The translations under genes and the position numbers were made by a program. From Hypanus sabinus (taxonomy: Eukaryota), in the NCBI RefSeq assembly GCF_030144855.1, contig NC_082732.1, positions 30,690,001 to 30,754,000 of the forward strand: DNA of 64,000 bases, read 5' to 3'. This document shows positions 1-4,097 of the stretch, piece after piece. The notes beneath the pieces are model-generated. The model worked only from the letters and a program-made list of their open reading frames with translations, was not told the DNA's origin and searched no databases. Positions within the stretch are counted from its first letter, which is position 1, and the number at the start of each line of letters is the position of its first letter.

Positions 1-1330
1 GGAAGTTACCAAGAACACTCTCTATTTCTGTTTTGCTTGATGCCCTGGTTGCCGGCACACAAAGCAAATCTTCTGTGTCCTTGCAGGAACTATATCCACC
101 ACAGCCACATTTTGACCTCTCTTCCCTCTCTTTCCACAGACCATGAAACTATTATGGCATCGTTGGATCCCACAGTTATCCCCAATTCTAAAACTTAACA
201 GTCAGCTGAACTCAGCCCTTCCCTGAGCATTTTCAGGAAAGACTGGATCATCTCCCTGGATTTCCCTGGCATGAGTATTCCTTATAGGCCCAGTATTTTT
301 GCTCTGCATTGCCCATGGTGTGTTCACTGGCTTCCTGAACAGCTGACTTTATGATTCCCCAGTTACTCTCTCCTTGTCCAAGTCATGGCTTCACTTCTTC
401 CTTAAAATTCCGATATCTCTCCTCATTACTGGCATTCCCATTACTTGGCCATGGTCCATCCTGCACTCCTGGAGTCATACTGCCCCATGCATTTCTTGGG
501 AATTTAGCTTTGACCAATATGTTTATGTCTTCGGGGTACATCTGGTGGACTTTGATAATTTCTTCTAATTTTTGCCAAAATTCTGCATTGCTACACGCAA
601 GTCTAAGTGAGGGCAATTCACATAGAATGATCTGCTTTTCTCCTGGGATAATGGGCCTGTGGATGGTGATGATCAGTGTGAGAGGCTGGATGGAATCATC
701 AGGGTTTTGAGCCTGCTGTTGCCTAGTTTCTGTAGGTGCTATTTCAACAAGCAGTACCGGGTATGACTTCCTCTGTTTGTGGGCATTTCCCCACTCTTCA
801 ACTTCCTGGTCCATCACCACCCAATCTGCCCTATCACCTTCCTCAGCAGTTACTCCCTTGGCTGCTGTTTATTCCACGTACCTTTCAGTCTGCCTAGATC
901 CCTGACTAATTCACTCTTGTGTTCTAATTGATCTGTCTGTTTTTCATCCACATCTCTCTCCGTAACTTTAATCTGTCCAGTTCTACTTGTACAATGTCTC
1001 AGTTCTCTGTATTCATTCCTTTCTTTCTGTAGCTCTTCTATTTGTTCTGTATATTGTGTGATTACTGACATTTTGTTCTCTCTTATAAATACACATGACA
1101 AAAAGTCACTGCTGCTTTATCCCCCTTCCTCCTTGATTAGCTTTTCCTCCACTGCCACTGTTCCTCTGAGCTCCAGGTCTTAATCCACCAATACTTTGCC
1201 ATTCCCTGTTCAATCATCTCAAGTTGATGGAGTATATACTATGTGAGTTCTGTCCTCTTCATAATTGAGCCTGTGATGTTCCTGTATCCCATTTATGTAG
1301 AAAGTTAAATGCTTCTAAACTATTGCCCAT
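1..1330 (-). pseudogene. gag: Endogenous retrovirus gag, disrupted by stops and frameshifts; the element continues past the window edge
   Basis: Starts aagATGG GC AAT AGT = MGNSLEAF at 1330. ORF 850-1101 is coiled-coil-like. ORF 383-820 is capsid-like (HRPIIPGEKQIILCELPSL...FWQKLEEIIKVHQMYP). In frame past the stop it reads NWGIIKSAVQEASEHTMGNAEQKYWAYKEYS (MHR-like), then CFVCRQPGHQAKQ at 66-28 (zinc knuckle lacking the last Cys). It lies downstream of the PBS and LTR. Confidence 0.8.
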
Positions 1331-1711
1331 CTTAGGCTTTGATTCTGAGGTTTTCCCAGATACAGTCAGACACACACAAAAATTCCCTGAGCATATCCTC
1401 TGGCATCCTGAAAGTGTTTTCCACACTACCCAAGTGTTTTCAGTAGCCATGCTACACTTAACCTACCCAGTGAGTATACACTCACCTCCCTGGCATCCAG
1501 AATGTTCAGTGACCACCTTTCATAACTGATGGCCCTGTCTCAACAAATTATCTGGCGTCTAGTAGCTGGTTCCCTGCACCAAACAAGCACAGGCTCACCC
1601 ACACACACCACAGCATTTTCACAACTACCTCTCCAGCTCTCCGCTGAGTTCTTCAATTCTTCATGACCCCAATGTGTCCAGATTCAAGCATGGGGTGTTA
1701 TGATCACAAAC

Positions 1712-1720
1712 ACTCACCCT
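1712..1720 (-). promoter_or_regulatory. Candidate retroviral major splice donor
   Basis: Minus strand AGG|GTGAGT about 50 nt downstream of the PBS and upstream of gag, the usual position. Confidence 0.5.
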
Positions 1721-1766
1721 TCTTACACTGCTGAGGCTGCTGGCTTTGTAATTGCGTCACAAGCGT

Positions 1767-1784
1767 ATCCTAGGTGAGCCCCCA
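1767..1784 (-). promoter_or_regulatory. Primer binding site, tRNA-Pro type
   Basis: TGGGGGCTCACCTAGGAT matches the MLV-type PBS TGGGGGCTCGTCCGGGAT at 14/18 positions, and 3 of the 4 mismatches fall in CpGs. It is preceded by ...AACA-TT, like the MLV CA-TT-TGGGGG junction. Confidence 0.85.
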
Positions 1785-1786
1785 AA

Positions 1787-2391
1787 TGTTGTGACTGTGA
1801 TCTAAATCACCTGAGAGACACTGGAGTTGAGGATATGAAAATCTTTATTCACGACAACAAACAGATATTCTTGCAGAGACACGCATGGTAGAGACTTACA
1901 AACACATTGCATTATTATACCTTTTATATTAGAGTTAACAACATGTGAGTCAATACAATCTCAAAGTTACAATGACATCTTTTAGTTCAATATTTTGGGT
2001 TGACAATCCTTTCAATTACATATCTACAGTGGGAGATACCTCTGAATGTTCAAACACCCTTGTTGACACTGATATTCTAAAAACTTCTGAAGACAGAGAG
2101 CCATATGCCTGATTACACCATTGTAGCCTTCTCACCATAGGCCTGTATTGAGTTAACTACTACTGTGAATACAAACTAACAGCATCGTAACACGACAATG
2201 CATGTGAATAATGATGGAAGAGGTAATTTCCTGTCAGTAAACACATCCAGGGTAAATAGGATTCGGGTAAACACAAACATAAAAGTTTGCAAGTTCCTTC
2301 CACGGGAATACAAAGGCAGCAATTGTATGGACACCGACACACCCAAATTTACTGTTTGCTAGTAAATAATAATTTAACTCACACCAGTATC
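1787..2391 (-). mobile_element. ERV 5' LTR; upstream boundary uncertain (~2192 or ~2391)
   Basis: Ends in CA 2 nt before the PBS. Minus-strand TATAAAA at ~1922-1928 and AATAAA at ~1844-1849 lie in U3-R-U5 order. Confidence 0.65.
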
Positions 2392-2404
2392 AGCCTAGAT
2401 CATG

Positions 2405-2870
2405 AGACCTTAAGACAGAGGAGCAGAATTAGGCCATCTGGCCCATGGAGTCTGTTCTGCCATTCAATTGTGTCTGTTTTTTAAAATTTCCTCCTCAACC
2501 CCAGTTTCTGGCCTTCTCCCTATAACCTTTGATGCCATGTCCAGTCAAGAACCTATCTCTGCCTTAAAAACACCCAACGACCTGGCCTCCACAGCTGCAT
2601 GTGATAACAAATTCCACAAATTCACCACCCTTTGGCTAAAGAAATTTCTCCACATCTCTGTTTTGAAAGGGCGCCCCTCTATCCTGAGGCTGTGACCTCT
2701 TGTCCTAGACTCTCCCACCATGGGAAACATCCTTTCCACATCTACTCTGTTTAGACTTTTCAATATTCAAATGGTTTCAATGAGATCCCCCCTCATCCTT
2801 CTGAATTCCAGTGAGTACAGACCCAGAGCCATCAAATGTTCCTCATAAGATAACCCTTTCATTCCTGGTA
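2405..2870 (-). mobile_element. CR1 LINE 3' fragment
   Basis: ORF 2545-2763 reads RTRGHSLRIEGRPFKTEMWRNFFSQRVVNLWN, the CR1 ORF2 C-terminus, followed by the 3' UTR. Confidence 0.92.
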
Positions 2871-3859
2871 TGAAAATTTATTAACAAAATTTTTTAAAAA
2901 AACAACAATACTGTATAATACAAAATAAAGAAAATGTTCATCCAGGACAGATATTGATGTGGGAGCATCCTCCCAAATATATATTTATTTACTTATATCT
3001 ATAACGTGCATGCAATCATTAGAGTTGATTGTTACGTAACCAATGCAGTTTACTTCATTGCATTTACTCACAACATTGAAACAGTTTTATGTAGAAGATC
3101 CTGTCCCAGAAAACAAATGTTTATGCACTTCCAAGGAAAAAAACGTTGAACTTTCTTCAATGTCATGTTCTAAGCAGCTAACTGAAAGCTATCTGCTCGT
3201 TCTCTGTCTGCATGGGGGTTCTCCCACATCAGTATTTGTCCTTCCTAATGAGTTCAATATGTTCTTCTCCAATGTTCGTTGTCCATTTCCATTCTCCTTC
3301 AATCCCACACTCGGTAGAAAAAATGTTAACAAAACAATTCCTATCGGCTAATTCAACAAACCTAACTTAATCAATTGAATTACTATTTTAAACAACAAAA
3401 AATGAAATACCAGATTGTATAATCTAATTAAAGGAACACTTATTTCATTATGAGAAAATCTGCAGAAAATAAAATACACAACAGCATAACTGTATTAATA
3501 AAATAATGCATAATCTTAAACCAGGGTATTACACAATATTGATTGCAACTATAGCTATGACTATTTTTGGGATGCTAAGTGACAACATCAGCTTGGTCTG
3601 CCAGCTTGAACTCAGTCACAATGCTGCAAGTAACTTAGTCATTTTGCCTGATTTGATACAAGCCATTTAACACAGCCCCATTGTCTTAACATTTGGCTAA
3701 CACGAATGCAAATTGTTCATGGTCACCATTTTGCAAATCATGTCTCTTAGTCTGTGCTTCAGAGACAATGTTGTTTATTTGCAAAGGTGTTTCTAGCTTT
3801 AATTTACTGCTTGTAATTTACAGTTTACATTAAGGACTGAAGACTGGTTGTTGTTTGTA

Positions 3860-4040
3860 TTCACAGGCAGACAATCTCTGAAGAGTTTCAATAATGGCTG
3901 TGGTCACCCATCTTGTAAAGGCACTGCCCAGAGGCAATGCAAACCACTTCTATATAAGAATTTGCCAAGAACAATCATGGTCAAAAGACCATGATCACCC
4001 ACATCATATGACACGGCACATAATAATGACGGTGAAGATA
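3860..4040 (+). mobile_element. RTE-related SINE or short repeat, copy 1
   Basis: Contains GGCAATGCAAACCACTTC...TTGCCAAGA, resembling the RTE/Bov-A motif. Matches 13335-13500 in reverse complement. Confidence 0.65.
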
Positions 4041-4097
4041 TTCACATAACTCCAGAATACTCCCTAACAGTTCAGGATGTGATCAAATGCAAAAGTA

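Follow-up and report, generated by a model that had tools for sequence, protein, structure and literature searches.

In the accessible text of the survey by Xu et al. 2018 (PMC6001957), clade Huo was defined as the snakehead-retrovirus-related endogenous retroviruses (ERVs), including class III. The whale-shark element Rh_ty_ERV4 and the element Ma_te_ERV17 fall within a block of tips labelled Huo there, the label being taken from the tip order in figure-derived text. Snakehead retrovirus itself was put between epsilon and spuma-like viruses by Jern et al. 2005 (PMC1224870), who, in the sections available, called grouping by primer binding site (PBS) inconsistent. The typical length of target-site duplications was given as 4 bp for ERV1 and 5 bp for ERV3/4 in the available part of Chong et al. 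2014 (PMC4299795), where some SnRV/Ovex1-related ERVs that were left unclassified are also said to possess zinc fingers and GPY/F motifs. Non-autonomous ERVs are represented by MaLR, ETn/MusD and the deer-mouse subfamilies (PMC10089650, accessible text), which have two LTRs, no pol, many copies and an autonomous partner, and by the zebrafish element BHIKHARI (10.1101/2024.03.25.586437, accessible text), which combines a coiled-coil-like Gag N-terminus with the lack of pol. Further background is contained in the accessible portions of PMC10699275, PMC8278194 and PMC4977317.

Here we analysed a 64 kb stretch of DNA, the window (G000:C77:30690001-30754000), together with the 10 kb to its left (L031), a stretch further left (L032) and searches of the 4.04 Gb assembly. 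The initial annotation had read a minus-strand order of TATA box, AATAAA, CA-TT junction, PBS, splice donor, leader, capsid segment and Cys-His box at the left end of the window, and all of these were found in that order (Table 1). The focal element is real and retroviral, an endogenous retrovirus that is old, decayed and now inert. A second (3') LTR was located about 9.5 kb left of the window (L031 509-1 and L032 10000-9827) with a purine tract before it. Two LTRs with TG...CA ends, a PBS and a polypurine tract are thus present in the focal copy, as is characteristic of Retroviridae. The provirus is about 6 kb long, or 14.2 kb when the later nested insertions are included. Its start had been placed at 2391; we found that the 5' LTR starts at 4069 and that later insertions split this LTR into the pieces that align to the 3' LTR. 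Position 2391 falls inside one of the insertions, since the 3' LTR contains nothing that corresponds to 2404-2109, and the 62 other matches listed in the DNA search all stop at or before window position 2121. Judged by motif, the inserted material presumably consists of a TG..CA-bounded solo-LTR-like stretch (about 3533-3029), a very high-copy LINE-like piece (2871-2405) and further sequence without an assignment. The solo-LTR-like stretch had no match among the fetched loci. The rest of the window (5000-64000) is dense in LINE-/SINE-like repeats, and its long frames appear repeat-derived or low-complexity.

Table 1. Features of the focal provirus in the window, listed in minus-strand order.
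Feature	Position	Strand	Basis
Start of 5' LTR (TGTTAGG...)	4037..4069	-	Start identical in 3' LTR and other copies
Later repeat within U3	3862..4036		Missing from 3' LTR; 77-88% matches elsewhere
5' LTR, U3 piece	3537..3861	-	255/312 sites equal to 3' LTR
Later insertions in U3, outside the provirus proper	2109..3536		Missing from 3' LTR; depth of 2401-3000 far above the rest
5' LTR, remaining U3, R and U5; TATA-like AATATAAAAG from 1930, AATAAA at 1849, CA end at 1788-1787 followed by TT	1787..2108	-	263/322 sites equal to 3' LTR
Primer binding site, tRNA-Pro	1767..1784	-	14/18 to the 3' end and CCA of this genome's tRNA-Pro; similar in other 5' LTRs
Splice-donor-like GGTGAGT	1712..1718	-	GGTGAG or a one-letter variant at the same place in several family copies and three sister-family copies
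Leader	1331..1766	-	Shared stops in all three phases (5/5/8)
gag, N-terminal part, coiled-coil-like stretch (by eye)	870..1330	-	Frame broken by stops and frameshifts; ATG at 1330 possibly secondary
gag, capsid region from N-terminal domain to major-homology-like motif, with a single stop inside	251..868	-	Horn-shark Gag-Pol homology, fold model, stop census
gag, remaining capsid and linker, frameshifted	67..250	-	40% over 35 residues to horn-shark Gag
First zinc knuckle, end truncated	31..66	-	Pfam zf-CCHC; second knuckle and protease left of the window
Start of repeat inserted into the nucleocapsid region	1..30		Continues to about L031 9390; family similarity ends at 32-48 and resumes at L031 9385

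The two LTRs of the focal copy differed by p 0.179 and K2P 0.207 +/- 0.020 over 659 sites (K2P 0.188 without CpG-type columns), and in the other two-LTR copies the LTR divergence was 0.16-0.30. The CmiERVs of the elephant shark differ in this respect, with 0.024-0.033 against 0.21 for the focal copy (PMC4422223, accessible text). Two rates, 2.2e-9 and 2.2e-10 per site per year, are quoted in the same available text and give an insertion age of 47 or 470 million years; as 470 million years looks too old, we state the age as tens to a few hundred million years only. A per-year substitution rate was not found in the available part of PMC10587355. The reading as an old and decayed ERV was borne out, and neither of the outcomes named in the initial annotation as refuting it occurred: there is a second LTR, Gag has a capsid fold, and the reverse transcriptase (RT) of related copies did not group with Gypsy.

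The earlier assignment of the PBS to tRNA-Pro also held in comparison with the tRNA-Pro of the genome itself. Apart from 1784-1767, no 18-mer on either strand of the 64 kb window reached 13 matches to the end of this tRNA. Sister-family copies, however, carry two different PBS types behind related LTRs, some of them Pro and others a second type (TGGTGTCAG...), possibly tRNA-Leu. With ARAGORN no tRNA was detected at the one fetched of six pattern hits for the second type. Among loci L101-L138 the copies divided by PBS type into E83, E92, E125, E127, E129, E132 and E138 on one side and E123 and E137 on the other. The putative splice donor at 1718 is conserved, which hints at a 3' gene since lost.

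A leader of about 430 nt followed by a gag start reading MGNS had been proposed. The leader stood, with 436 nt between the PBS and the ATG at 1330, and the start was not confirmed: this ATG was present in 3 of 17 aligned copies. In its columns the second base was T7/C6/G3/A1 and the third G10/A7, whereas across 168 neighbouring columns the most frequent letter had a median share of 0.88. Because so few copies have the ATG and the site is mixed like a decayed CpG, the argument from Gly2 is weak. We concluded that retroviral class is poorly predicted by a tRNA-Pro PBS or by an apparent Met-Gly start.

The capsid frame is stop-free over 161 aa (868-383, minus strand), and shared stops, counted as those common to half or more of 29 copies, were 0 of 26 in it. 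Its openness exceeds chance; the clean frame speaks only for openness in the source of the copies. The capsid region was 39% identical to a horn-shark Gag-Pol (E 2e-18). A structure model of 688-251 (pLDDT 82) matched the MLV capsid best (Z 6.6, 133 aligned, rmsd 3.9), although HTLV-1 and Copia came within 1 Z of it and count as tied. Of the top 12 structural-match rows, 11 were retroelement capsid or capsid-like chains, at modest scores. With Foldseek the same model gave 0 matches at E 0.001 or better (best E 0.12), the top rows still being capsids. In the ESM Atlas, Gag_p24 and Gag_p30 clusters ranked first for the capsid (0.95 and 0.93), which we treated as leads. The model thus points, with modest scores, to a retroviral capsid fold for this Gag piece.

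Profile and word searches were less productive. No Pfam Gag_p30 or capsid profile matched in three frames of the focal gag, nor in 18 intact or partial homologues, while the same scan found 101 other Gag_p30 matches in this genome. A word-based protein search with the 161-aa capsid frame confirmed 0 of 277 candidates, and profile A1 had no capsid match among PDB sequences (best E 0.1); the match of profile A2 to HIV Gag came largely from the homologues' zinc knuckles. A profile built from 15 natural Gag pieces retrieved 18 proteins among 1.84 billion. Of ten clusters looked up, five were named, from horn shark, loggerhead turtle, whale shark, fathead minnow and eel. The best match, from horn shark, belongs to a protein that runs on into RT, and the gag start of Ma_te_ERV17 is of the same kind as that of the turtle protein found with this profile (PMC6001957, accessible text). 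A probable cartilaginous-fish host had been suggested; this is consistent with our data because the nearest named Gag and Pol proteins come from horn shark, smooth-hound and whale shark.

The window edge is not what interrupts gag. The break is a repeat inserted near position 30, and gag resumes left of the window (L031 9385-9090), where the second zinc knuckle lies. The Cys-His box from 66 was recognised by Pfam zf-CCHC at E 0.0088, below the curated cut-off. After another insertion follows a protease remnant (L031 8793-8430), in which the active-site stretch has 62% identity with a smooth-hound Pol across 29 residues. A Gag with a capsid fold, at modest structural scores, is thus followed by an aspartic protease, as in Retroviridae.

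Any pol or env had been expected beyond the left edge of the window. The 10 kb there yielded the 3' LTR and the protease remnant and none of RT, RNase H, integrase or env: a six-frame Pfam scan of L031 detected none of these from the focal element, and the Pol proteins of relatives matched nothing in the left flank beyond the protease. Left of the protease, three non-coding segments follow (L031 8307-7834, 2382-2138 and 1994-510). A nested LTR-bounded element of 5.4 kb (L031 7831-2381), with LTRs 76% alike, stands between the first and the second; it holds a Tc1 transposase remnant as well as an L1-like piece in which a frame of 214 aa is open. In the focal copy the position of pol is occupied by about 1.1 kb of non-coding filler. 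A candidate env remnant at L031 1700-1050 was rejected, as it had no Pfam match, stops shared in all phases and no translated match to the env-like frames of this genome's other ERVs.

The family comprises at least 88 distinct loci in the DNA searches, with paralogue identities mostly of 65-80%. One copy, E119 (L119+L120), matches the focal copy in LTR, leader and gag (69-85%) and also carries RT, tether, RNase H and integrase. In a sister family, which has a different LTR, gag-pro-pol is followed by about 0.9 kb without any env-like frame before the 3' LTR begins. The relatives possess two zinc knuckles and a WIGP-type (GPY/F-like) motif at the end of the integrase. When 20 other loci were read downstream of gag, seven had the filler and no family pol, four had pol remains and nine had neither at the cut-off; the RT at L056 is a Gypsy insertion, and L050 holds a weak integrase piece. 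The seven pol-less copies match the pol-bearing ones up to the end of the protease and, where covered, again after the integrase. Between these points, six of the seven lacked any match to the RT, RNase H or integrase of the family; the seventh, L056, has matches in that interval. The filler occurred in 0 of 25 stretches picked for RT, and 21 of 39 filler loci lay within 15 kb of a gag or 3' match.

Later insertions are numerous in the focal copy and deletions private to single copies are frequent in the family, and one might thus suppose a complete provirus that lost pol after insertion, with no replicating non-autonomous subfamily. We regard this as highly improbable and already largely refuted, because seven further loci, on different contigs, have the same filler in place of pol and it was absent from all 25 RT-bearing stretches. 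Pol loss is common to several two-LTR copies that have a pol-bearing partner, and the copies therefore form a non-autonomous subfamily. In this they resemble the MaLR, ETn/MusD and deer-mouse elements, and the coiled-coil-like Gag N-terminus without pol is also that of BHIKHARI; the focal element differs from all of them in belonging to another retroviral group, in keeping gag and protease and in being long dead.

Env was likewise searched for in the pol-bearing relatives. No Pfam env match was found in the 3' regions of L060 and L133, stops are shared among copies in all phases after the integrase, and the distance from integrase to LTR in E133 is about 0.9 kb. Loss of env is common in ERVs. 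In a close outgroup of the family, E86 (L111+L112), env-like pieces were seen by eye after the integrase. These pieces suggest that env was once present in the wider group. At locus L107 (C18:44327000-44336999) a Gag-like match, 37% identical to horn-shark Gag, lies on the strand opposite to the neighbouring RT and represents either an inversion or a second element.

Target-site duplications of 5 bp, at 4/5 matches or better, were found in 6 of 9 two-ended copies, with the LTR start read one base in for E132 and E130; E92 matched at 2 of 5 bases, as did the focal copy, and E119 gave no clear-cut duplication. In the 5-bp duplication, and in the absence of env as in ERV-L, the family is like ERV3/ERV-L and ERV4 (PMC4299795, accessible text). 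Those groups are without zinc fingers and GPY/F, whereas the family has both, and this combination fits the unclassified SnRV/Ovex1-related ERVs of the same paper.

The focal copy has no RT, and the placement was therefore based on relatives at 65-75% identity. The RT-tether tree contained 45 of 51 prepared rows and was calculated under LG+G4 and rooted on Gypsy; the set is without ERV-L, foamy, beta, lenti and loki rows, and its epsilon labels were assigned by motif. Ten RT rows of the family and the sister family formed a clade (100/100), within a wider group (97/91) that also took in the horn-shark protein, a smooth-hound-containing cluster, one unnamed protein and two further elements from this genome. 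An unnamed fish clade was sister to the separate clade of gamma and epsilon-like rows (100/99). The family's group was sister to class I plus the fish clade (93/87), with snakehead retrovirus branching next, and a mixture model with 31 rows left this order unchanged (89/91). The AU test rejected the family together with the epsilon-like rows (p 2.6e-8), with crown class I (p 0.006) and with snakehead retrovirus (p 0.030), and also all non-class-I rows as one clade (p 0.018). The snakehead row (P0055) equals, in the stretch compared, the SnRV row in the accessible supplement of PMC7947760. We concluded that the family lies near but outside class I, its RT falling, with moderate support, between snakehead retrovirus and class I; in this tree the Huo side forms a grade, not a clade. 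A scan of viral contigs with the horn-shark RT gave no confirmed match. The cluster P0050, with 3,937 unnamed NCBI Pol members, falls in the fish clade that is sister to gamma and epsilon.

The class I-like label of the initial annotation can accordingly be kept in a loose sense only. For it speaks the position on the class I side of snakehead retrovirus in both trees; against it speak the branching outside gamma plus epsilon, the 5-bp duplications, the absence of Gag_p30 and the PBS swaps in sister copies. With class I ERVs the family shares tRNA-Pro PBS, zinc knuckles, GPY/F-like motif and capsid fold, and it differs from them in having its RT outside their clade, in the duplication length and in Gag_p30. 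A basal class I (epsilon-side) lineage, sister to gamma plus epsilon and outside Huo, would agree with these shared features, with the sister position under both tree models and with the MLV capsid as best, though tied, structural match. We nevertheless consider such a lineage unlikely, since support for the branch is unstarred, membership of crown class I was rejected, the duplications are of 5 bp and Gag_p30 is missing despite the 101 matches found elsewhere in the genome. The ranking of the family RT against solved PDB structures, with MLV first, was dropped as a classifier: snakehead retrovirus also ranks MLV first among solved RTs, and the ranking thus does not discriminate.

The protease start and RT motifs of Rh_ty_ERV4 are like those of the family, by eye only (PMC6001957, accessible text), and the RT motifs of snakehead retrovirus and of CmiERV lineage I are also similar in the available text of PMC4422223. 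CmiERV lineage I shares with the focal element a cartilaginous-fish host, the elephant shark (PMC4422223, in the part available), and the Huo elements of whale shark and turtle/eel overlap in hosts with the family's relatives, namely sharks, turtles and eel (PMC6001957, accessible text). Snakehead retrovirus has a coiled-coil Gag N-terminus (PMC2717909, accessible text), and that of the family looks coiled-coil-like by eye. The virus differs in possessing env and one zinc finger (PMC1224870, accessible text), whereas the family has two knuckles and no env was found. For Rh_ty_ERV4 the available text of PMC6001957 holds no account of a pol-less subfamily, of the LTR or of the PBS.

A lokiretrovirus, a BHIKHARI-like element or a Gypsy retrotransposon was also considered, given the BHIKHARI-like Gag N-terminus, the missing pol and the failure to find env. 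By eye, the RT motifs of horn shark and family differ from the Loki rows in the accessible part of PMC7947760 and resemble the snakehead row, and the candidate assignment to Lokiretrovirus was rejected. No env-like match to the paramyxovirus-F-like env, a trait of Lokiretrovirus, was detected in the left flank or the 3' regions of L060 and L133. The family RT is separated from the Gypsy outgroup and placed with the retroviruses at 100/100, in a tree without a Loki sequence, and relatives such as E119 have tether and RNase H. These alternatives are already disfavoured, and we give them very little weight.

Taken together, we think it likely that the focal locus is a provirus of a non-autonomous subfamily within an ERV family that is old, present in many copies and related to the snakehead-retrovirus group, the clade Huo of Xu et al. 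2018. Against the Huo part of this reading, the tree contains no Huo clade, and the two AU results at p 0.030 and 0.018 count against a simple Huo placement. A more elaborate proposal is an unnamed, largely elasmobranch branch that is sister of class I and not part of Huo. Its members would have lost env, spread inside cells, switched between tRNA-Pro and another tRNA primer and given rise to a gag-pro-only parasite, a MaLR-like pair independent in cartilaginous fish, maybe with a non-AUG Gag start; we consider this unlikely.

In the preferred reading, a provirus of a non-autonomous Huo-related subfamily, the subfamily layout is LTR, PBS (Pro), leader, gag with capsid and two zinc knuckles, protease, about 1.1 kb of non-coding filler, a short 3' region, polypurine tract and LTR, the filler standing where RT, RNase H and integrase were. 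A pol-less master copy with intact LTR, PBS, packaging region and purine tract would have been transcribed from its LTR. Its RNA would have been packaged in germ-line particles, perhaps with its own Gag and protease, and by analogy with ETn and MaLR (PMC10089650, accessible text) we infer mobilisation in trans, with reverse transcription and integration by the enzymes of pol-bearing relatives. Movement was probably intracellular, because no env was found in the pol-bearing relatives or in the focal subfamily. No function is indicated for the focal copy.

The suggestion of an unnamed lineage was right in part. The family itself seems to be unnamed, but a similar whale-shark element is present in the 2018 survey; no paper on the focal family was found in the literature searched, with subscription journals, Repbase and Dfam outside its scope. 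We therefore describe a new ERV family of an already known group of fish and turtle retroviruses, not class I proper. For hosts that have been sampled only thinly, this is a further old ERV family that is now mapped, and it spread for the most part as a passenger without pol or env. Since the group lies near the split between class I and the snakehead-like grade, better sampling could help to settle that part of the tree.

Among the DNA matches, contigs from four other organisms cover the LTR, leader, gag and host flank of the focal locus. In LTR, leader and gag they differ from it by about 2-5%, much less than any paralogue does, and they are best read as orthologues. None of the contigs listed from other organisms bridged the LTR start (31-letter rule), and no RNA record was listed as carrying the focal locus. 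Being common to these four organisms at a few percent difference, the locus could serve as a lineage marker.

Other ERVs of the same genome were observed in passing. The 101 Gag_p30 matches belong to young class I ERVs, unrelated to the focal family (e.g. L061-L070, at C26:136485226 and others), with many open frames of about 498 aa or more than 1,100 aa. A second non-class-I ERV family (E84 and E85, at L117+L118 and L115+L116, and L094) groups with frog elements and has kept env-like frames with a transmembrane stretch.
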